DNA from: a virus
Taxonomy: Duplodnaviria > Heunggongvirae > Uroviricota > Caudoviricetes
DNA length: 33,575 nt
Virus record (IMG/VR): IMGVR_UViG_637000261_000005
Direction: 5' to 3' (one strand)
The position numbers were made by a program, and so were the translations under genes. This document shows, piece by piece, positions 12,952 to 33,575 of this stretch (its first letter is position 1; each line of letters starts with the position of its first letter). The notes below the pieces were generated by a model. That model saw only the letters and a list, made by a program, of their open reading frames with translations, was not told the DNA's origin and made no database searches.

Positions 12952-12977
12952 TTATTTAAAACCTCGGTTTACGAGAA
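12952..12977. other. gix/hix-like 26-bp crossover site (right end of invertible segment)
   Basis: TTATTTAAAACC-TC-GGTTTACGAGAA compared with the gix consensus TTATCCAAAACC-TC-GGTTTACAGGAA. It lies at the start of the alternative fibre coding segment. Confidence 0.7.
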
Positions 12978-13673
12978 CTCGGCACAAGCGGGGAGAAAAT
13001 ACCGTTACTCAGTACAGCGAATACCTGGACCAATCGACAAACATTCAGCGGTGGCCTTTCTGGGGAACTGTCCGGCAATGCCGCTACTGCAACAAAGCTG
13101 AAAACAGCACGAAAAATTGCTGGAGTTGGTTTTGATGGTTCTAGCGATATCTCAATTAGTGCCAAAAATGTCAATGCATTTGCACTCCGACAAACAGGTA
13201 ATACTGTTAATGGTGATACATCCGTTGGATGGAATTGGGATAGTGGTGCATATAACGCCCTGATTGGTGGTGCATCTGCATTAATTCTTCACTTTAATAT
13301 AAATGCTGGTAGCTGTCCTGCCGTACAATTCCGTGTGAATTATAAAAATGGTGGCATTTCCTACAGGTCGGCTCGTGATGGTTATGGGGTTGAATTACGT
13401 TGGTCAGATTTCTATACCACGACACGAAAACCTTCAGCGGGAGATGTTGGTGCATATACGCGGGCAGAATGTAACTCAATGTTTATTACAGGTATTCGCC
13501 TTGGCGGTCTGTCATCTGTTCAGACATGGAATGGTCCCGGCTGGTCTGACAGGTCAGGTTATGTCGTTACGGGTTCAGTTAACGGAAACCGTGATGAATT
13601 AATTGATACAACACAGGCAAGGCCAATTCAGTATTGCATTAATGGGACGTGGTATAACGCGGGGAGTATTTAA
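12978..13673 (+). CDS. Alternative tail-fibre C-terminal segment (promoterless, expressed only after inversion)
   Basis: The open frame begins inside the gix site with no start codon (…NLGLRELGTSGEKIPLLSTANTWTNRQTFSGGLSGELSGNAATATKLKTARKIAGVGFDGSSDISISAKNVNAF…QYCINGTWYNAGSI*). This is the classic variable receptor-binding-domain pattern, and the end parallels the H C-terminus (…[14 protein letters not shown]). Confidence 0.7.
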   Translation, partial: LGTSGEKIPLLSTANTWTNRQTFSGGLSGELSGNAATATKLKTARKIAGVGFDGSSDISISAKNVNAFALRQTGNTVNGDTSVGWNWDSGAYNALIGGASALILHFNINAGSCPAVQFRVNYKNGGISYRSARDGYGVELRWSDFYTTTRKPSAGDVGAYTRAECNSMFITGIRLGGLSSVQTWNGPGWSDRSGYVVTGSVNGNRDELIDTTQARPIQYCINGTWYNAGSI

Positions 13674-13675
13674 CG

Positions 13676-14209
13676 ATGATGCACTTAAAAAACATTACTG
13701 CTGGCAACCCTAAAACAAAAGAGCAATACCAGCTAACAAAGCAATTTAACATCAAATGGCTTTATTCAGATGATGGAAAAAACTGGTATGAGGAACAAAA
13801 GAATTTCCAGCCAGACACTTTGAAAATGGTCTATTACCATAACGGCGTTATTATTTGTATTGAAAAGGATGTTTCAGCAATTAATCCGGAAGGCGCAAGC
13901 GTCGTTGAATTACCTGATATTACAGCAAATCGCCGGGCTGATATTTCGGGGAAATGGTTGTTCAAAGATGGCGTAGTGATAAAGCGAACTTATACCGAGG
14001 AAGAGCAGAGGCAACAAGCGGAAAATGAAAAGCAAAGCCTGTTGCAACTTGTCAGGGATAAAACCCAGCTATGGGACTCACAGCTACGGCTGGGCATCAT
14101 TTCCGACGAGAATAAACAAAAATTAACCGAGTGGATGCTCTATGCGCAGAAAGTCGAATCTACAGACACCTCCAGCCTGCCAGTAACGTTTCCCGAACAA
14201 CCAGAATGA
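13676..14209 (+). CDS. Tail fibre assembly protein, alternative copy (Tfa')
   Basis: [40 protein letters not shown]… shares N- and C-terminal motifs (…[18 protein letters not shown]…) with the G-like gene on the other strand. It starts 3 bp after the alternative fibre stop. Confidence 0.85.
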   Translation: MMHLKNITAGNPKTKEQYQLTKQFNIKWLYSDDGKNWYEEQKNFQPDTLKMVYYHNGVIICIEKDVSAINPEGASVVELPDITANRRADISGKWLFKDGVVIKRTYTEEEQRQQAENEKQSLLQLVRDKTQLWDSQLRLGIISDENKQKLTEWMLYAQKVESTDTSSLPVTFPEQPE

Positions 14210-14237
14210 GAGAAGGCCCGATATTGGGCCTTAATTT

Positions 14238-14766
14238 TTACTCAGGCTTTTGTGGCCATTCGGGATTTGCTGTATCCACACGGCTGACCAGAACGCTGTA
14301 GCGTTCCCATGACTCCAGTCGTGTGCGTTCCTCATCCATCGCCATATTCAGCCTGACAGCGCGTTCCAGTGGCTGAATAACGCTTTCAGCTTCAGAAAGC
14401 AACGCGACCTTTTGTGATTCGGCCTGTTGTTGCTGTTCGTCTGCTGTATAAATCCGCTTAACCACAGTTCCGTCCTTAAACATCCACTTCCCTGAATCAT
14501 CGGCACGACGATTGGCTGTTATATCTGGAATCTCAACGACACTAAAGCCTTCGGGATTAAGTGTTGGGGCATCTTTGGTTATGGCAACAATAATATTATT
14601 TTCGTCGTATACAATCTTTATGGTGTCGTCCTGAAAGTTATTTACTTCCTCATACCAGTTTTTACCGTCTTCGGACCATAACCAGATAACATCAAAATTC
14701 TTTGTTAGCTGATATTGTTCTTTTGTTTTTGGATTTCCGGACTTAATATTTTTTAATATGCTGCAT
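14238..14766 (-). pseudogene. G: Tail fibre assembly protein (P2 gpG-like) with a frame break in an A-run at the N-terminus
   Basis: The expected start ATG CAG CAT ATT AAA lies 4 nt after the H stop, but reads MQHIKKY* because of an A6 run (plus strand T6 at about 14749-14754). With A5 it would read [41 protein letters not shown]…, which matches P2 G. The long ORF in the track instead uses an upstream ATG overlapping H. Confidence 0.75.
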
Positions 14767-14769
14767 AAT

Positions 14770-16920
14770 TTACACCTGTGCGACGTTATACCATGTGCCA
14801 TTGATGTATTTTTGTATTGGTCTGAAGATGGCTTCATCATCGCCATCTACTTCACCAATGATTCTTAATCCGGTAATTGCGTGTCCGGCTTTTTCATAAC
14901 GACCACCACGCGCCATCAATTGAACAACACGCGTACCCAGGCGAACATCTTTTACATAGCGTGAATCAAAATTCCCCCAGTTGCTGGGCTGTATCTGACC
15001 GTTAACAGAAAATATTACCGAGTTATCTGTATTTCGCTGGCTATAGAAATGCCATCCTGCCTCATTGCCTAACTCTGCAACTACTGGACGGGTTGAAGCA
15101 CCCCATAAATTAAACGTTGCATTCTTTGTGGAGTTGTTGGAGCTGGATAGCGTGAATTTTTTACCATCCCCGGCCTGAATATTTTTAAAAGCAATAGCCA
15201 CTCCATTCTGAAAGCGGAATACACGCTGACTATTAGCATAAACATCCAGAATACCGTCTCCATTCTGTTTAAATCCGGTGTCATTATCACCAAGAACAAT
15301 AGAGCTACCACCTAACGCATTCGTCGAACCAACTCCAAGACTGCCATTAATGACAGCATTAACAAGAATATTTAGTGCATCCCATTTCAGCGTCATCAGG
15401 TCTTTTGTTGTGGTGCTCTGGCGGCTTCTCCATTTGAAATATTCATTGCCGTTGTCGCCTGTTTCAAACCACATGTATGAATCAGTGTCACCATCGGCAT
15501 CATTTTTAAATCCAATCTTCGCCCAGTCAGTATTTCGAATCCAGGCAAGGATTGAGTCATTTTCAAAAGTAAGCCCACCGGACAAGGTATCGCCATTTTT
15601 TTGCACGGCGTTACCAGCCCTGTTTACCGTTTCCTGTAAACCGAGGTATTCGATAACGGCAGCAACGGTCGATTTCGCAAGAATATCCCGCCCGACTTTT
15701 GTCAGGGTTGCCAGGCTGGCGACATCATTCCCCGTAAAATACGGAAACCTGTCTGCCGCAGTAGCAAGCCCGGCCAGCGCCGTCAGGGTGGCATCTTTCG
15801 GTTGCTTACCCGCAAGCGCGTTAGTCATGGTGGTCGCAAAATTCGGGGCGTTTCCCAGCGCCGCCGCTAACTCGTTCAGCGTATTCAGTGCGTCAGGTGA
15901 CGAATCTACAAGGGCGGCAATCGCAGCCATAACGAAAGCCGTGCTTGCGATTTGGGTATTATTCGTTCCCTGTCGCGCAGCTGGCGTTGTTGGCGTTCCG
16001 GTCAGCGCAGGACTGTTTAAGGGCGCTTTCTTGTTCGTTTCATCCATTACCGCCTTAACCGCTTTCGATGTCGCGGCCAGTGTTTCAGACGTGCTGTTGG
16101 TGGCACTACTGAGCTGGACTATCCCTTTTTGTGCCGTCGTGGCGTCCTGAGCGGTATATTTTGCGTTAGCAAGGTCATACGCGGCCTTTACTGCTTTCGG
16201 CGTTGCAGCCTGCGTTTCAGACGTGCTGTTGGTGGCGCTACTGAGCTGGACAAGGCCTTTTCGCGTCGTGCTGGCATCCTGCGCAGTATATTTACCGTTA
16301 GCAAGATCATACGCGGCCTTTACTGCTTTCGGCGTTGCAGCCTGCGTTTCAGACACGCTGTTAGTGGCGCTACTGAGTTGAACAAAGCCTTTTGCGGTCA
16401 GCGAGGCGTCCGGGTGACGTCGTGACTGTTCATGCTCTTTCAGTTTGTCATCCACGTAATCCACTGTGGCCATCACCATGGTGTTGTCCACGGTAAGCGC
16501 CACGGTGGCAGTGCTGGATACGGTCAGAATGGTGCGAAATGTTTGTGCACGACCGGACCCTTCGGCAACGGCTGGCTTGTAACTTTCGGCAGTATTTCCC
16601 ACCGCGATTAAATCGCCGTGCTCATCAAATACACCAATTTCCCGGATCCAGAATCCGCCCGTTTCAGGAGGAATAACCAGCTCCGCAATAATGCGGTTCT
16701 GATGTGTTGCGTCCAGGATGACGCGATTAACAGTATGTCGCCACACCTCATGCACCAGACGGGTCTGCTTACTGTCTGGTGTGGGCAACGTGCCGCCACC
16801 GTCGCCCACGGCCATATGAGTCAGGCGGACAGGCTTACCATCTGGCGCGGCTACCTGAGCTAATTTTTTTGCACCCGTATCGGTGATAATGGTTTTAAAT
16901 TTTCGTGTTGTGGTACTCAT
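14770..16920 (-). CDS. H: Tail fibre protein (P2 gpH-like). The constant N-terminal part lies outside the invertible segment and the current C-terminal part inside it.
   Basis: 716 aa; the N-terminus is conserved with P2 H. It contains three tandem 44-aa repeats and a gix site at codons 423-430. Confidence 0.9.
15631..15656. other. gix/hix-like 26-bp crossover site inside H (left end of invertible segment)
   Basis: Plus strand TTCCTGTAAACC-GA-GGTATTCGATAA; the reverse complement TTATCGAATACC-TC-GGTTTACAGGAA matches gix at 23/26. It is in inverted orientation relative to the 12952-12977 site and encodes H residues IEYLGLQE. Confidence 0.7.
15997..16392 (-). repeat. About three tandem 132-bp (44-aa) in-frame repeats within H
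   Basis: KG[FLI][20 protein letters not shown](AYDLAN.KYTAQDA) is repeated at H residues about 177-220, 221-264 and 265-308. The matching direct repeats are visible in the nucleotide sequence. Confidence 0.6.
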
Positions 16921-25340: not shown

Positions 25341-27092
25341 ATGATTCAGGACGCTTTTGTGCGCCAGCGTGCGCGGCAACTTTACTGGCAGGGTTATCCG
25401 CCCGCAGAAATATCACGTCTGATGGGAATAAACCCGAACACGATTTATGCGTGGAAAAAACGTGACCAGTGGGATGAAACGCCACCCGGGCAGCGTGTCA
25501 CGCAGTCCATCGATGCGCGCCTCATCCAGCTTACTGAAAAACAGAATAAAACAGGCGGTGACTTTAAGGAAATAGACCTGCTGACCCGGCAGCTTAAAAA
25601 GCTGCATGATGGCCAGCCGGATGTGATGGCCGCAGGAAAGAAAGGCCGGGCGAAAAAACTCAAAAATCATTTCACGCCGGAACAGATTGCCGCACTGCGG
25701 GAAAAAATCATCAGCAGGCTGGAGTGGCATCAGCGGGGCTGGTTTGACTCCCTGACCCTTTGCAGGGAAGCCGGGATACGTAACAGGATGATCCTGAAAT
25801 CCCGACAGATTGGGGCGACCTGGTATTTTGCACAGGAAGCACTGCTGATGGCGCTGCGTGACGATGTGGCGCAACCTTACCAGCGTAACCAGATTTTTTT
25901 GTCTGCGTCGCGTCGTCAGGCGTTCCAGTTTAAAAGCATTATTCAGAAGGCCGCGGCTGAAGTTGATGTGGAGCTGAAAGGGGGCGATAAAATCATCCTC
26001 TCCAACGGCGCAGAGCTGCATTTTCTCGGCACTTCTGCTGCGTCGGCACAGTCCTATACGGGCAATTTTTATTTTGATGAATTTTTCTGGGTCAGTCGCT
26101 TTGCTGAACTGCGCAAGGTGGCTGGCGCTATGGCAACCCTCAGCGGACTGCGGCGCACCTACTTCTCCACGCCATCCACCGAAACGCACGAGGCATACGC
26201 CTACTGGAACGGCGACCGCTGGAACGAGAAAAAGGCCTCGCATAAACGCCAGCGTTTTTCTGTGGACTGGAAAACGCTGCATAACGGGCTTATCTGCCCT
26301 GACCGGACGTGGCGGCAAATTGTCACGCTGGAAGATGTGGTTAATCACGGCTGGAAACACACCGATATCGACGAAATTCGTGATGAAAACACCGAAGACG
26401 AGTTCCTCAATCTCTATATGTGTGAGTTTGTCCGCGAAGGGGAATCGGCATTTAACCTGAATATCCTGATTGGCTGCGGCGTTGACGGATACGACGACTG
26501 GAAAGACTGGAAACCTTTTGCTCCCCGCCCGATGGGGAATCGTCCGGTATGGATTGGGTATGACGCAAACGGCAGCAGTGGCAACGGCGACAGCGGCGCT
26601 GTGTCCGTGGTGGTTCCTCCGTCTGTTCCTGGTGGCCGTTTTCGAACGGTGGAGACGCGACGCGTTCAGGGGCTGGAGTTTGAAGAACAGGCCAGAGTCA
26701 TTGAAGAGTTCACGTGTCGCTACAACGTGGAACACATCGGCATTGATGTGACGGGCGGGAACGGGGAGGCTGTTTATCAGATAGTGAAACGGTTTTTCCC
26801 TGCCGCTATTCCGTACACCTTCACGCTGTCATCAAAACGGTCGCTGGTACTGAAAATGCTGCAAATAATGCGTGCCGGGCGGTGGGAATACGATCGCGCC
26901 GAACGCGAGCTGGTCGCGGCCTTTAACGCCGTGCGTAAGGTGAAAACACCGGGCGGCTTTATCACTTACGAAACGGACCGAGCGAGGGGGATCAGCCACG
27001 GCGACCTTGCGTGGGCAACCATGCTTGCTGTCATTAACGAACCGATTGGCGGCGAAGGAGAAAACGAGCGTTTCACGGTTATGGAGTTCTGA
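25341..27092 (+). CDS. P: Terminase large (ATPase) subunit (P2 gpP-like)
   Basis: 583 aa with P2 P-like sequence throughout. Confidence 0.9.
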   Translation: MIQDAFVRQRARQLYWQGYPPAEISRLMGINPNTIYAWKKRDQWDETPPGQRVTQSIDARLIQLTEKQNKTGGDFKEIDLLTRQLKKLHDGQPDVMAAGKKGRAKKLKNHFTPEQIAALREKIISRLEWHQRGWFDSLTLCREAGIRNRMILKSRQIGATWYFAQEALLMALRDDVAQPYQRNQIFLSASRRQAFQFKSIIQKAAAEVDVELKGGDKIILSNGAELHFLGTSAASAQSYTGNFYFDEFFWVSRFAELRKVAGAMATLSGLRRTYFSTPSTETHEAYAYWNGDRWNEKKASHKRQRFSVDWKTLHNGLICPDRTWRQIVTLEDVVNHGWKHTDIDEIRDENTEDEFLNLYMCEFVREGESAFNLNILIGCGVDGYDDWKDWKPFAPRPMGNRPVWIGYDANGSSGNGDSGAVSVVVPPSVPGGRFRTVETRRVQGLEFEEQARVIEEFTCRYNVEHIGIDVTGGNGEAVYQIVKRFFPAAIPYTFTLSSKRSLVLKMLQIMRAGRWEYDRAERELVAAFNAVRKVKTPGGFITYETDRARGISHGDLAWATMLAVINEPIGGEGENERFTVMEF

Positions 27093-28138
27093 TGAGCAGA
27101 AAAAATAAAAAAGTGCGCATGAGTTCACGCATTGATCTCGCTGATGCGCTCAGGAAAGAATCATCGCTCAGTGCATTCACATTTGATGGTCCTTATCGCC
27201 TGACCGGGCATGACCTGCTGGACAATATGTACTGTGCTGATAACGGGCGGTGGTATGAAACCCCGGTGGACTGGTACGGTCTGGCAAGAGCTGCCCGGCA
27301 AACGTCCTGGCATCAGTCTGCGCTTTATTTTAAGCGCAATGTATTGCTCGGTTGCTACATCCCGCACCCGCTGCTTTCCCGGCAGGATTTCTCGGCGCTG
27401 GCGCTGGACTGGTTTGTGTTCGGTAACGCATTCCTTGAGCTTCGAAGCAATATGCTCGGCGAACCGCTTAAATTACGGCACGCCCTGGCGAAATACATGC
27501 GACGCGGAAGCGATCTTGAATCATGGAGGTATGTGCAGGATGGCAAGGATGCGTTTCAGTTTCGCCCAGGCAAAGTGTGTCACCTGATGAATCCTGACAT
27601 TAACCAGGAAATCTACGGCATGCCGGAATATCTCGGCGCATTACTCTCGGCCAGCCTGTCTCATTCGGCGGACATGTTCAGAAAACTGTATTACGACAAC
27701 GGATCCCACGCCGGGTGCATCATCTACATCGGTGCCGCGCAGGTAAACCGCGAAAGCATGGACTCCCTGAAAGAAACGCTACAGGGTGCGCGTGGTGGTG
27801 GTGCGTTTAAAAACGTGCTCATTCATGCGCCCAACGGGGGCAAAGAGGGGGTGCAAATTTTGCCGTTCCAGCAGATCACCGCAAAGGATGAGTTCATGAA
27901 TGTTAAGGCGGCATCCCGTGATGATGTGCTGGCTGCGCACCGCGTTCCGCCGCAACTGATGGGGGCGATGCCGGGTGAAAAAAGTGCGTTTGGTGATGTG
28001 GAGAAGGCCGCGCGGGTTTACGCAATTAACGAGCTGATGCCCGTCATGGAGGCCATGAAGCACATCAATGACTGGCTTGGCGAAGAGGTGATCCGCTTTA
28101 ACCCTTACGCACTGTTAGACATCCAGCCCACATCCTGA
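27092..28138 (+). CDS. Q: Portal protein (P2 gpQ-like)
   Basis: 348 aa; its start overlaps the P stop. Confidence 0.9.
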   Translation: MSRKNKKVRMSSRIDLADALRKESSLSAFTFDGPYRLTGHDLLDNMYCADNGRWYETPVDWYGLARAARQTSWHQSALYFKRNVLLGCYIPHPLLSRQDFSALALDWFVFGNAFLELRSNMLGEPLKLRHALAKYMRRGSDLESWRYVQDGKDAFQFRPGKVCHLMNPDINQEIYGMPEYLGALLSASLSHSADMFRKLYYDNGSHAGCIIYIGAAQVNRESMDSLKETLQGARGGGAFKNVLIHAPNGGKEGVQILPFQQITAKDEFMNVKAASRDDVLAAHRVPPQLMGAMPGEKSAFGDVEKAARVYAINELMPVMEAMKHINDWLGEEVIRFNPYALLDIQPTS

Positions 28139-28189: not shown

Positions 28190-28562
28190 ACTCTCCAGCT
28201 CCTGTATCAGTCAGATAATTTCACGACGCCTTCCAGTTTATCGCCACCATCGACGGTCAGACTCTTACGCAATCCCACCGCGTTGACTGCATGTTCTCGC
28301 CGCCTCAGTGCGATTTTGACGGCCTTACCTTTCACCCCATCAAATCAGAATCCCTCACGTATTTTTCACGCTCAGCGTGAGAAATACGGCCATTCTGTCG
28401 TGTCGCTGCGACATCGTTAAGGGAACGCTATTTACCCCCTGAAACGCGGGCTGTTCCCCCGTCACCTGCGCGCAGAAAAAGCGCGTTTTTTTGTGCACGC
28501 ACGGATCCTTGACGGATCCAGCCGCCACGCGGGCTGGAAGGGCAAAAATTCGTTCAAAAAAA

Positions 28563-28589
28563 TTGTGCAAATTTGTGCACTATTGTGCA
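28563..28589. repeat. Three TTGTGCA motifs at exact 10-bp phasing; a fourth copy at 28491-28497
   Basis: AATTGTGCAAATTTGTGCACTATTGTGCAG, followed by the inverted repeat GGGCGAT-N8-ATCGCCC. This looks like a protein-binding array in the cos-proximal non-coding region. Confidence 0.4.
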
Positions 28590-28628
28590 GCAGGGCGATG
28601 TGCGATTATCGCCCTGGTTTGAGGGGGA

Positions 28629-29219
28629 TCAGGTGTTATTTTTATCTGTCGTCAGTGGGCTAAACCATCCACAATTTACATCGCATGACTGATGCGTTCT
28701 GTCCTCGTGTTTCTCCTGCCACAATGCTTTTCCGCCAGCCTTTATGATGGCTCTTTCAACATCCCGCTCGTATCGCAAGGGCTGAAATACGTCATTAATG
28801 AAATATTCGCTTATGTCCGGAAGCGATACTGCAAAATTATTTGTTTGTTGCGCCGTCCTGCTATGCAGCAAAGCGGCATGCTTTAATGCGTCCTGTGCTT
28901 TCTGGAATTTAAGTGCATAGTCAGTGGCGATTTTTTCCAGTTCAGCGATTCGGTTGTCTTTGGTTTCCAGCCAATCAAGTAGCGCCAATACTTCAGGATC
29001 CCCGACATCCAACACTGTTACGCGTGATTTTTCATAATGTTCGTCAGCAAGAGTTCGGCCAATTTTGAAATCTCCATCATCACCATAACCGGAGCAGGCA
29101 TAAACAACCTGTGCTCCAGATATTCGCTGAATTGACATTTCCTCGCCGCAAATAGGGCATTTCGGTACTGGCACAGGTGAATAACGTTCACGTAATGCCT
29201 GATAGTTGATTTCGCTCAT
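28629..29219 (-). CDS. Hypothetical 196-aa protein with an N-terminal CxxC…C zinc-ribbon-like motif, distal gene of the par operon
   Basis: MSEINYQALRERYSPVPVPKCPICGEEMSIQRISGAQVVYACSGYG… RBS AAGGAGA. No family recognised. Confidence 0.6.
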   Translation of the reverse strand: MSEINYQALRERYSPVPVPKCPICGEEMSIQRISGAQVVYACSGYGDDGDFKIGRTLADEHYEKSRVTVLDVGDPEVLALLDWLETKDNRIAELEKIATDYALKFQKAQDALKHAALLHSRTAQQTNNFAVSLPDISEYFINDVFQPLRYERDVERAIIKAGGKALWQEKHEDRTHQSCDVNCGWFSPLTTDKNNT

Positions 29220-29282
29220 TAAGTCGTTCTCCTTGTTTATGTTCTGAGGTGGAGAGCAGGGCGAACTCGCCCTGATGTTGTG

Positions 29283-29594
29283 TTATTCAGGAAATAACGC
29301 CCGGATATTTCCGGCCATCTGACTGGTTATCTGTGCGGTTGATACTGGCTGTGATGCGGGGCGTTCTGTCCTGGTTTGTGTCACTGATAACGCTTCATCA
29401 CCAGCCCATGCAGCCAGTCGATAAGCCTCTGCCGGATTCATTTTCAGAAGTGCCAGCCCGGCCAGAAAAGCCACGCGTTGGCCGCTTTTGCGGGCTTCTG
29501 GTGTAAGGCTGTCCAGCCAGGCGCATGCTTCTCCTTCGTTCTTGACGGCGGTGGGCTTCAGATAGAAACTTATCCGTCTGGTTGGAGTCGTCAT
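29283..29594 (-). CDS. parR: ParR/StbB-like plasmid partition adaptor (ribbon-helix-helix)
   Basis: MTTPTRRISFYLKPTAVKNEGEACAWLDSLTPEARKSGQRVAFLAGLALL aligns with R100 StbB …RRTIAFKLNPDVNQTDKIVCDTLDSIPQGERSRLNRAALTAGLAL. RBS AGGAGT. It starts 5 bp after the parM stop. Confidence 0.7.
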   Translation of the reverse strand: MTTPTRRISFYLKPTAVKNEGEACAWLDSLTPEARKSGQRVAFLAGLALLKMNPAEAYRLAAWAGDEALSVTQTRTERPASQPVSTAQITSQMAGNIRALFPE

Positions 29595-29598
29595 TGGT

Positions 29599-30204
29599 TT
29601 ACTCCTTGTCCATTGCGTACAGCCCATTAACCAGAGCAAACTGTGGCACCCCGTCCGCGATGAAAGTCGCATTAACTCCGCAGGCTTCGCGGATAGCGGG
29701 TGCCACAATCTCCGCCCCTCCACCGACAACCATCACCCGCCCGTAACCCGAAAAAACCGCCAGCGCGCGGATCACGCGTTGTTTCAGTGTTTCTTCCTTT
29801 TCACGAATTACCGCCATCAGGCTGGCGTAATGCGCGTCATTGTGGATGTGCTGGCGCAGCCAGGCTTCATCATGGCGATGTTCGATAATGGTATTGGCGA
29901 TGTGGTGACTGGTGCGCATACCGTTAGTGGCCATCACCGACAGTACGGCATCGGCCATCAGAGAAACGCCCACGTGTGGATCGCAAAACACCTGGCTGAT
30001 ACCTGCCAGTTGCCCCTGAACCTTTGCCACATCCAGCGTGGTTCCGCCCAAATCCACAATCAGCAGGGATTCAAACGGACTCATGTCAGCCAGTGCCTTA
30101 AAGCCAGCCGGAATGGATTCAGGCATAACCTGTACGTTACGGATAGTGAATGCTTCGCCGTTCTGGTACTCCACCGGGCGCATGACGTTCGCTTTTTTGC
30201 GGTT
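29599..30204 (-). pseudogene. parM: ParM/StbA actin-like partition ATPase, 5'-truncated by IS911 (roughly the C-terminal 200 aa remain)
   Basis: …[72 protein letters not shown]…VMVVGGGAEIV… aligns with R100 StbA …[37 protein letters not shown]…[16 protein letters not shown]…VMVIGGGAELI…. The MLTTS start in the ORF track lies inside the IS911 terminal repeat. Confidence 0.8.
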
Positions 30205-30212
30205 TGAAGTGG

Positions 30213-31381
<1,169 letters not shown>

Positions 31382-31453
31382 TGGAGCACCTGTGTTGTTC
31401 TGAGGTGAGCATATCACCTCTGTTCAGGTGGCCAAATTCAGTGTGCCACTTCA

Positions 31454-31719
31454 AACCGAAGAACACGGCGGTGCGGAGTCCGGAGAGTAACGGAATAGCA
31501 GAGAGCTTCGTGAAAACGATAAAGCGTGACTACATCAGTATCATGCCCAAACCAGACGGGTTAACGGCAGCAAAGAACCTTGCAGAGGCGTTCGAGCATT
31601 ATAACGAATGGCATCCGCATAGTGCGCTGGGTTATCACTCGCCACGGGAATATCTGCGGCAGCGGGCTTGTAATGGGTTAAGTGATAACAGATGTCTGGA
31701 AATATAGGGGCAAATCCAC
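31454..31719 (+). mobile_element. IS2: IS2 3' fragment (about 266 bp, part of insD plus the right inverted repeat), truncated by the IS911 insertion and deletion
   Basis: …[26 protein letters not shown]…LSDNRCLEI* is identical in pattern to the insD C-terminus in the full copy at 1447-1719. It ends GGGGCAAATCCA at 31719. Confidence 0.85.
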
Positions 31720-31917
31720 TGCGGCACAGATCAGCTCGGAAAGTTCGTTAAGTGCATCCAGATCATCAGCGTAAAAAGCCACGTCATACAGACTTCGGAT
31801 TGCTCTGGTCAATGAGTCACGGGCCGCACGTTCAGCATGAGCGCCTGATGCACTTAAGCGAAAATAAAAACGCTCAAGTGCTTTGTTAATGAGAGTTTTA
31901 TATTCTTTGCCCATCAC
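31720..31917 (-). pseudogene. Hypothetical ORF truncated at its 3' end by the IS2 fragment (66 native codons)
   Basis: MMGKEYKTLINKALERFYFRLSASGAHAERAARDSLTRAIRSLYDVAFYADDLDALNELSELICAAV, then reads into the IS2 terminal repeat. It may be a remnant of the P2 early region. Confidence 0.3.
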
Positions 31918-31925
31918 AACGCCCT

Positions 31926-32126
31926 TTAATCTGCTTTCTGTATTTCAGCTTCTGAATCCATACAAATAATTTCGATATAGGGTTCATCGCCATTAACCTG
32001 GCGTGCCTTTTCAGCTTCGCTAATGATTTCTTGTACGGTCTGGTACGGAAGTTCCACAAGCAGTCGCGTGCCGTTCAGATAAACGTAAGTGGCTTCGTCG
32101 GCTCCGTTTTTACCCGCCGGAGTCAC
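31926..32126 (-). pseudogene. Hypothetical ORF whose 5' end abuts or continues into IS629
   Basis: 66 aa from a GTG start exactly at the IS629 boundary; the frame stays open about 10 codons into the IS. Probably a fragment. Confidence 0.25.
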
Positions 32127-32168
32127 TGAACCGCCCCGGGTTTCCTGGAGAGTGTTTTATCTGTGAAC

Positions 32169-33059
32169 TCAGGCTGCCAGATCATCGTTTCCGATGGAAG
32201 CATAATAAGCTTTTTCTGCTTCTGCCGGAGGGATGTGGCCCAGCCTTTCCAGCAATCGTCGATTATTATACCAGTCCACCCACGTGAGTGTGGCCAGTTC
32301 CACTTCTGCACGGTTTTTCCAGCTCTTACGGTGTATTACCTCCGCTTTGTAAAGACCATTGATGCTCTCCGCCATCGCGTTGTCATACGAGTCGCCTGTA
32401 CTTCCTGTTGATGCCAGTAATCCGGCTTCCTTAAGCCGCTGTGTGTAGGCCAGCGATACATACTGAGAACCTTTATCACTGTGATGGACCGTGCCGGACG
32501 GTCGACGGGCCCATAACGCCTGCTCCAGTGCATCCAGCACGAATGTCGTCTCCATGGACGATGAGACCCGCCACCCCACGATGTATCCGGCAAACACATC
32601 AATGATGAACGCCACATAGACGAAGCCCTGCCATGTGCTGACGTAAGTAAAATCAGCCACCCACAGCTGGTCAGGTCGTTCTGCCACGAACTGACGGTTT
32701 ACGCGGTCGCCTGCGGCAACGGCTTTCCGGCTGATGGTCGTACGGACCTTTTTACCCCGGAGAACACCGGCAAGTCCCATAACCGCCATGAGACGTGCCA
32801 CAGTGCATCTGGCCACTCTGATGCCTTCCCGTAACAACTGACGCCAGACTTTACGCACACCGTATACCTGATGATTCCCATCGTATACGCGCAGTATCTC
32901 TTTCTTCAGCCAGTCATCGCGCTGCGCACGGGCACTGCGTTTATCAGGATGATGTCGCTGTTGCTGACAGTGGTAATACGTTGACGGGGCAATATGTAGT
33001 TCACTGCATACCGGTCCGACCCCGTACAGCTTACGCAGCTTATCCAGCAGTGGCATCAC
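32169..33059 (-). CDS. IS629-like OrfB (DDE transposase)
   Basis: …[31 protein letters not shown]…[10 protein letters not shown]…[19 protein letters not shown]… is an IS3-family catalytic core. Confidence 0.8.
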
Positions 33060-33382
33060 TTTTTCCAGAGGCGGTCGAACTCCGCCTTCGCAAAATAAGC
33101 GGAAGCCTGGCGAAGGATATCGTTACTGCGGCGCAGTTCACGATTTTCACGTTCCAGCTCTTTCAGACGCTGACGTTCAGCGGTGGTGAGCCCGCCATCA
33201 CCGCCTCCGGTATCCCGCTCATGCTGGCGTACCCAGACACGCAGAGTCTCCGGTGTACAGCCAATCTTTGGGGCAATGGAACAAATTGCCGCCCACTGTG
33301 AGTCATATTCGCCCTGACTTTCCAGAACCATACGAATCGCCCTCTGACGGACTTCGGGGGAAAAACGAGTATTTTTAGTCAT
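33056..33382 (-). CDS. IS629-like OrfA
   Basis: 108-aa HTH/leucine-zipper transposase subunit; it overlaps orfB in the -1 frame. Confidence 0.8.
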
Positions 33383-33436
33383 CCTGTTTACCTCTTTCTC
33401 AGGGAGTTTAGTCTCCAGGATTCCCGGGGCGGTTCA

Positions 33437-33575
33437 CATGATGAACGGCGGCAATATTCTGACGCTCCAGAAAATTCTGGGGCACGCAAAGATTCAGACA
33501 ACGATGATTTATGCCCATCTTGCGCCGGATTACCTGCAGGATGCGGTGAGGTTTAATCCACTAGGAGGTGCTTAA
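33437..33575 (+). pseudogene. int: 3' fragment of a phage tyrosine integrase, truncated upstream by IS629
   Basis: …GGNILTLQKILGHAKIQTTMIYAHLAPDYLQDAVRFNPLGGA* is the conserved C-terminal catalytic tail (…LGH..I.TTM.YAHL…) of P2-type integrases. Its reading frame starts abruptly at the IS629 end. Confidence 0.7.

Follow-up and report, generated by a model that had tools for sequence, protein, structure and literature searches.

The parM-parR pair of a decayed P88-like prophage as the probable remnant of a conserved phage early operon

Introduction

Why would an integrated P2-family prophage carry, next to its cohesive end site (cos), a pair of genes known from plasmid partition, and what would such a pair do there? 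The question is raised by a viral DNA of 33,575 nt (IMG/VR record IMGVR_UViG_637000261_000005; this whole stretch is called the window below), in which a truncated parM gene for an actin-like ATPase, the parR gene for its adaptor and a gene for a 196-aa protein lie between cos and the point at which the early region has been lost. The original prediction for this DNA regarded the pair as unexpected in a P2-like prophage and proposed that it could reflect either a phage-plasmid ancestry or hotspot cargo captured from a plasmid. Our analysis points to another answer. With a probability that we put at about 85%, the window holds the 3' remnant of an early operon of the P88-like phages (genus Xuanwuvirus, family Peduoviridae, the P2 family), in whose intact members ParMR would partition or position circular phage genomes.

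Identification of parM and parR in a P88-like prophage

The element in the window is a decayed P88-like prophage, integrated and defective. In blastn comparison, positions 5423-28589 and 29257-30204 were collinear with P88 in blocks of 92-98% nucleotide identity (96-98% over more than 20 kb), and the terminase and portal were 97.8-99.2% identical to those of all Xuanwuvirus records. Both the genome-wide similarity and the P88 gene order thus place the window in this genus. The prophage has kept its late genes and lost those for replication and control.

The parM fragment lies on the minus strand at 29599-30204, within an open reading frame (ORF) of 29599-30219, and comprises codons 119-319 of 319 according to Pfam and to comparison with an intact reference copy in a prophage of Escherichia coli FDAARGOS_1299 (L001). 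It covered the full profile of the ParM C-terminal domain (PF21523, E 2.3e-69). The StbA_N profile (PF06406) was matched only over its last 39 positions (119-157 of 158), and parM is therefore truncated at its 5' end. The 118 missing N-terminal residues include the phosphate-1 motif IDDGSTNIK (residues 5-13), so that the complete ATPase expected of a type II partition system is found in the intact relatives (319 aa) and not in the window. The intact protein aligned from end to end with ParM of plasmid R1 (PDB 1mwk, E 1e-92), and the nucleotide-binding catalytic motifs were conserved. Across 2066 bp, the window differed from L001 at only two nucleotides, both in the parM fragment and both amino-acid-changing (R143Q and G268V).

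The parR gene (29283-29594, minus strand) is intact. It starts at an internal ATG 4 nt past the parM stop codon and encodes a StbB-type adaptor of 103 aa, which matched Plasmid_stab_B (PF10784, E 7.8e-23) and the PHROGs family phrog_2515, 'partition protein' (E 1.7e-57), and was 100% identical to WP_000211289 of intact prophages, L001 included. An adaptor of the StbB/ParR family thus follows parM directly, as in type II systems, and the identification of the two proteins as an R100/R1-type ParM and its adaptor, made in the original prediction, was borne out. The 27 prophage ParR sequences that we aligned were nearly invariant in residues 1-65 and in the C-terminal NIRALFPE, and hypervariable in residues 66-95. 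This layout corresponds to the expected DNA-binding domain, flexible linker and ParM-binding tail, and its conservation indicates functional selection in the intact phages. Among E. coli prophages with ParM at 95-100% identity, ParR identity ranged from 97% to 52%, the variation being concentrated in the linker. An AlphaFold2 monomer model of ParR (mean predicted local distance difference test score, pLDDT, 58) had helices at 20-29, 32-52 and 54-61, which fit a strand-helix-helix arrangement, with the N-terminal strand unmodelled; a sequence search of the PDB with ParR matched no solved structure.

Gene order and distribution of parMR

We read the gene order around parMR in P88, P884B11, phiSM, Chuche, PhiR44_2, 520873, 569R5 and the intact E. 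coli prophage. It was fixed in every one of these intact relatives: gpA, parM, parR, variable genes, a conserved cos region of 450 bp, and the portal gene. Since the order is always gpA-parM-parR and the genes after parR change, parMR is assigned to the constant backbone and is not swapped-in cargo; the true variable slot is the one between parR and cos.

Within the genus, the pair is the norm. Of all records in the phage collection, 14 encoded a ParM at least 95% identical to this one, all of them P88-like, and the sole other match was the phage-plasmid D6 (47.5%). Among complete E. coli genomes, parMR DNA was found in 1307 of 5426 and a P88-type portal in 1084; 1453 of the 1455 parMR places were chromosomal. 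The view of the module as unexpected in such a prophage was therefore not supported. In the plasmid collection, ParM of at least 95% identity occurred in six records. The one that we inspected (NZ_CP148288.1, L024) is a whole P88-like genome deposited as a separate 34.4-kb circle, the 'plasmid' of an E. coli strain isolated from a cat, and it contains integrase, repressor, cox, gpA and parMR. All other plasmid ParMs were at most 53% identical, the best one outside prophage-like records reaching 52.9%.

Outside the genus, the next relatives in a large protein database were ParMs of Plesiomonas and Hafnia (62% each), Serratia (58%) and Enterobacter (54%), and all four are encoded in P2-like prophages with the order gpA-parM-parR-cargo-portal. 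Because the closest relatives are prophage-borne at the same position, the association with gpA is old and a recent capture from a plasmid is contradicted; the comparison of plasmid-borne and prophage-borne relatives suggested along with the original prediction thus went against its idea of captured cargo. Two further ParM homologues that we looked up, at 49-50% identity, stood in conjugative or plasmid-like contexts. A neighbour-joining tree of ParM contained two prophage clades, each recovered in 200 of 200 bootstraps. A search of genome contigs for related loci added nothing beyond near-identical copies, which came from E. albertii, Salmonella and one contig labelled Vagococcus sp. (NZ_JBQPOM010000071.1). 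ParM on this last contig is 98% identical to the E. coli prophage protein, and the label is probably due to contamination or mislabelling of the assembly.

Candidate ParR sites upstream of parM

The gpA stop codon and the parM ATG lie just 76 bp apart in the intact relatives. Neither an iteron array nor a sigma-70 consensus promoter was found in this spacer; as a positive control, the same repeat-search tool with identical settings detected iterons ahead of the parM genes of D6 and an IncFII plasmid. According to the original prediction, a parC centromere upstream of parM had been removed by the IS911 event. The upstream region has indeed been deleted from the window, but a classical parC, with an iteron array around a promoter, was not seen in the 76 bp of the intact relatives either. 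A search of these relatives for an R1-like parC was thus negative.

The spacer does contain palindromes. One of 20 bp, ACGGGATTnnnnAATCCCGT, has a degenerate second copy 73 bp upstream, within the end of gpA, and another, GATTAATTAATC, adjoins the parM ribosome-binding site; neither occurs elsewhere in the P88 genome. More broadly, the intact relatives have paired 38-nt repeats about 73 bp apart, one in the gpA 3' end and one in the gpA-parM spacer, each with a palindrome of 8-bp stem (L001 10492-10602, P88 8729-8837 and locus L017 6336-6448). A similar pair 72 bp apart was present in the Plesiomonas prophage, and the Serratia and Enterobacter prophages have a long inverted repeat at the corresponding place. 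These palindromes could be ParR sites or an RNA hairpin, and their variants show no compensatory changes that would tell the two apart. The most likely ParR site is the palindrome-bearing 76 bp upstream of parM, with ACGGGATTnnnnAATCCCGT kept as a candidate only. None of the palindromes remains in the window.

Repeats on the cos side were also considered for the missing centromere. Three repeats of the TTGVTGCA type (TTGTGCA, or TGCACAA on the other strand) stand in exact 10-bp phase at 28563-28589, with a fourth copy 72 bp away at 28491, and form the sole phased iteron cluster of the P88 genome (10903-10930 in P88; TRF and k-mer scan), at the margin of the conserved cos region. The Enterobacter phage phiT5282H, which has no parMR, carries this block in almost unchanged form, and we therefore assigned it to cos and packaging and not to ParR; it is probably a terminase recognition site. 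Also invariant between the P88-like phages and phiT5282H is a putative cos core, GGGCTGTTCCCCCGTCACC, at 28448-28466, which we take to resemble the P2 cohesive end.

Loss of the early region

The truncation of parM coincides with an insertion sequence (IS). A copy of IS911 with inverted repeats at both ends (1250 bp, minus strand, 30205-31454) abuts parM codon 119. By megablast against complete E. coli genomes, 226 genomes covered the region at up to 99.9% identity, and every match ended at window position 30204. Truncation of parM by IS911, as originally predicted, was thus confirmed. IS911 has no target-site duplication (GTT on one flank, AAC on the other). It is followed by the 3'-terminal fragment of a second IS (31455-31721, plus strand; ORF 31381-31707), comprising the C-terminal part of an rve transposase and a terminal repeat that resembles, we presume, that of IS2. 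Next comes a surviving piece of the early operon (31719-32127, minus strand), corresponding to L001 15340-15748 and containing a DUF4754 gene (31678-31917; PF15946, E 1.8e-41) and its neighbour. Compared with L001 by blastn, about 5.2 kb has been deleted, including ParM codons 1-118, the gpA replication endonuclease gene and several early genes.

In total, at least four IS copies or fragments are present in the prophage, namely an IS3-family element near the left end, IS911, the IS2-like 3' fragment and an IS629-like element; together with an integrase remnant they occupy 480-1708, 30205-31721, 32169-33400 and 33438-33575. Where cox, the repressor gene and the beginning of the integrase gene would stand, the window has an IS629 copy, and only the C-terminal end of the integrase is left. 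An ALIL frameshift pseudoknot (Rfam RF01497) was recognized in the IS629-like element at 32985-33101. The early part deleted from the window contains, in L001, a C4 antisense RNA and an isrK-like RNA (Rfam; 14090-14287). The Rfam scan revealed no known RNA family in the region of parMR and cos. A Shigella boydii contig shares the junction of truncated parM and IS911 with the window, and this, together with the IS load, suggests a Shigella origin of the DNA.

The system in the window cannot work, since the phosphate-1 motif of ParM is missing and gpA, the operon promoter and the region upstream of parM have been lost: on its gene content, the module is dead. The parR gene and the gene downstream of it are intact in sequence, with the operon promoter lost.

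The Ead/Ea22-like protein and the variable slot

The 196-aa protein, encoded at 28629-29219 on the minus strand, had been described as a zinc-ribbon protein of no obvious function. It is a member of the Ead/Ea22-like family by its match to PF13935 (E 2.1e-32), which extends over residues 2-140 and profile positions 1-134 of 139 and scores 113 bits against a Pfam gathering cutoff of 27. The protein is 100% identical to WP_001289966 and to the intact copy in L001, and it also matched phrog_368. Of the zinc-ribbon description, the cysteines of the N-terminal part (C21-x2-C24 and C42) were found; the four ligands of a zinc ribbon were not, and a stretch of an NCBIfam topoisomerase I zinc-ribbon model matched weakly (E 0.005), far below its cutoff. 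By sequence, no PDB entry matched the protein, the solved C-terminal domain of lambda Ea22 included.

Family members in lambdoid phages favour lysogeny and are linked to the lysis-lysogeny decision (PMC7093339), and a structure has been reported (PMC10834534). Like Ea22 of lambda and Stx phages, the 196-aa protein is encoded by an early-expressed accessory gene of a temperate phage. In contrast to them, its C-terminal 56 residues are unrelated, and its gene lies beside cos of a P2-family phage and not in a lambdoid exo-xis region. Only for the lambdoid members has a pro-lysogenic role been shown (PMC7093339, PMC10834534).

The gene is cargo of the slot between parR and cos. We aligned the region from portal to cargo, with the sequences that follow parR, for seven loci and the window, and delimited the slot at 28590-29282: conservation among P88-like phages stopped at 28589, with the TTGTGCA block on the cos side, and restarted exactly at the parR stop codon. 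The content of the slot differed in every P88-like phage examined, the window carrying an Ead/Ea22-like variant unlike P88's own. The Ead/Ea22-like gene therefore behaves as variable cargo and parM-parR, constant in all these phages, does not. The whole gpA-gpQ interval is a published variable hotspot of P2-like phages (PMC9122126; PMC13586616). All three genes lie in this interval, which is equivalent to that of tin and old in P2, between cos and the deleted early region, as had been predicted. In other prophages and phages, the slot before cos was occupied by genes for an S8 peptidase and an AAA ATPase (phiT5282H, L012 3698-6981), a KAP-family NTPase (Enterobacter prophage, L021 8411-9757) or HicA/HicB (Serratia prophage, L018 9450-10084).

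Other features of the prophage

On the far side of cos, the genes for the terminase large subunit (25341-27092) and the portal (27092-28138) lie on the plus strand and read towards cos (Pfam Terminase_6N, Terminase_6C, Terminase_5 and Phage_portal). Collinearity with P88 is interrupted at 12972-13214 and 14976-15377, and identity in the block between them falls to 92%. The P88 map shows the tail-fibre and DNA-invertase region here, suggesting that the window carries a different host-range cassette.

Proposed role of ParMR in the intact phages

How might ParMR serve an intact phage? The early lytic operon of these phages ends with gpA, which encodes the rolling-circle replication endonuclease, followed by parM, parR, the variable cargo and cos. 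Once the operon is switched on, after infection or induction, ParR would bind its site on the circular phage DNA, and ParM filaments would then push or position the circles so that non-integrated genomes are spread out or inherited. In the window, an IS911-associated rearrangement has removed ParM residues 1-118, the 76 bp upstream, gpA and the control region with cox and C. We infer the life-cycle role of ParMR and the location of its centromere, because no experiments on the ParMR of a P2-like phage or another member of the Peduoviridae were found in the searchable literature.

The absence of such experiments weighs against our explanation, as do three other points. A classical centromere was not found, and the 76 bp upstream of parM contain just two palindromes and lack a promoter consensus. 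The structural model of ParR is of low confidence, and its ribbon-helix-helix fold comes solely from the Pfam match. Finally, the union of the two prophage ParM clades, present in the neighbour-joining tree, received just 84 of 200 bootstraps. A single origin of all prophage ParMs was therefore not retained, and one or two ancient acquisitions are possible. Tentatively, and with the balance of our judgement slightly on the side of doubt, we propose that intact P88-like and related P2-family phages position or segregate their circles by a ParMR that is cotranscribed with gpA and acts on a minimal palindromic centromere. If this is true, a cytoskeletal function that has escaped study resides in prophages of roughly one quarter of complete E. 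coli genomes, and the window copy is its fossil. The window itself, a pseudogenised remnant of a common prophage, matters little. More generally, the parMR module of P2-family phages is an old part of their backbone, linked to gpA, and the variable slot is that between parR and cos. As far as the searchable literature shows, the role and centromere of this very common phage-borne actin system are unstudied; in P88 or phiSM they would be cheap and tractable to study.

A variant of this explanation, which we hold to be possible though somewhat doubtful, is that ParMR organises lytic replication or packaging by moving circles to replication or assembly sites, as AlpAC does for prophage CGP3. It would fit the fact that parMR immediately follows gpA within the early lytic operon and lacks a consensus promoter of its own, and it has a precedent in AlpAC, in which an actin-like protein and its adaptor are required for efficient viral DNA replication (PMC4446434, PMC5539076). 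The sequence by itself does not separate this task from partition of an episome.

In an idea that is neither new nor shown, P88-like phages would persist as autonomous low-copy plasmids, with ParMR as their plasmid partition system. Pfeifer et al. (2021; PMC7969092) counted P88, for its partition and replication genes, among the putative phage-plasmids and suggested that it has both an episomal and an integrative state. The complete P88-like genome recorded as a separate circle (L024) would agree with such a lifestyle, as would the fact that the only phage outside the genus with a ParM homologue in the phage collection is D6, a P1-like phage-plasmid. That lone circle, however, could come from excised phage that was replicating in the culture used for sequencing; nearly all parMR places are chromosomal; and integrase, a C-type repressor and cox were found in all intact copies. 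The only replication gene nearby is gpA, a lytic rolling-circle initiator and not a plasmid theta replicon. We therefore regard a phage-plasmid lifestyle or ancestry as unlikely, and for the window it is moot: extrachromosomal maintenance in lysogens does not apply to a copy that is integrated and defective.

Much less probable still is that the three genes together act in anti-phage defence or exclusion, like many occupants of the gpA-gpQ hotspot. Their location in a defence hotspot (PMC9122126; PMC13586616) and the defence-like genes of the slot elsewhere (KAP NTPase, HicAB, S8 peptidase with AAA ATPase) would agree with this idea. However, PADLOC gave no match for any of the three proteins, ParM and ParR keep canonical partition motifs and architecture, parMR is constant and not variable, and the Ead/Ea22 family is tied to the lysis-lysogeny decision in lambdoid phages and not to defence (PMC7093339). 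We can hardly credit, and rank last, a recent capture of the module from an IncF-type plasmid into the cos-proximal slot equivalent to tin and old: it draws on the position in the variable hotspot (PMC9122126; PMC13586616), the plasmid-derived names StbA/StbB and ParM/ParR and homologues in thousands of plasmids, but the best plasmid ParM (52.9%) is more distant than those of same-position prophages in four other genera (54-62%), parMR stays in place at every P88-like locus while the genes that follow parR differ, and the long upstream regions of the plasmid and phage-plasmid relatives contain iteron arrays, of which the same tool detected none in the phages.

Comparison with known systems

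The kind of system described here is known, and the window copy is a fossil of it. P88 (gp17/gp18) and the Xuanwuvirus phages phiSM, P884B11 and 520873 have the same parM-parR genes at the same position, with ParM 98-100% identical; in the window, unlike in P88, parM codons 1-118 are missing, and IS911 and the IS2-like fragment stand in place of gpA, the upstream region and most of the early operon. The arrangement has already been annotated and catalogued: all three genes are named in RefSeq, both partition proteins belong to PHROGs families called 'partition protein', and the exact arrangement, with the same three protein accessions, appears in the supplement of the hotspot catalogue of Rousset et al. 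(2022).

Among plasmid systems, ParMRC of R1 and R100 (StbA/StbB/parC, type II, actin-like) has a ParR of the same family, PF10784, encoded directly after parM as in the phage. The ParM proteins, however, are only about 50% identical, and R1 and R100 have an array of about ten iterons and a promoter upstream where the phage relatives have 76 bp and two palindromes. Moreover, the phage pair lies inside an early operon, after a rolling-circle initiator and on an integrating element, unlike that of the plasmids. The phage-plasmid D6, whose record itself notes similarity to P88 StbA, is a true plasmid prophage in which, unlike in P88, parM is preceded by 266 bp with an iteron array. Its ParM is no nearer to that of P88 than are those of ordinary plasmids.

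Two systems of integrated elements are functional analogues. AlpAC/alpS of the Corynebacterium glutamicum prophage CGP3 also consists of a prophage-encoded actin-like protein and a DNA-binding adaptor that are used after induction (PMC4446434, PMC5539076). It belongs to another actin-like family in another host phylum, and the role shown for it is efficient replication and transport of viral DNA, not inheritance. The best functional analogy is SrpMRC of the SXT/R391 elements, likewise a ParM/ParR-type system on a normally integrated element. SrpM is distant from R1 ParM, SrpR has no homology to ParR, srpC lies in an intergenic region of 615 bp, and the elements are conjugative and not phages. 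SrpMRC is switched on solely upon activation of the element and stabilises the circle that exists transiently after excision (PMC4489591).

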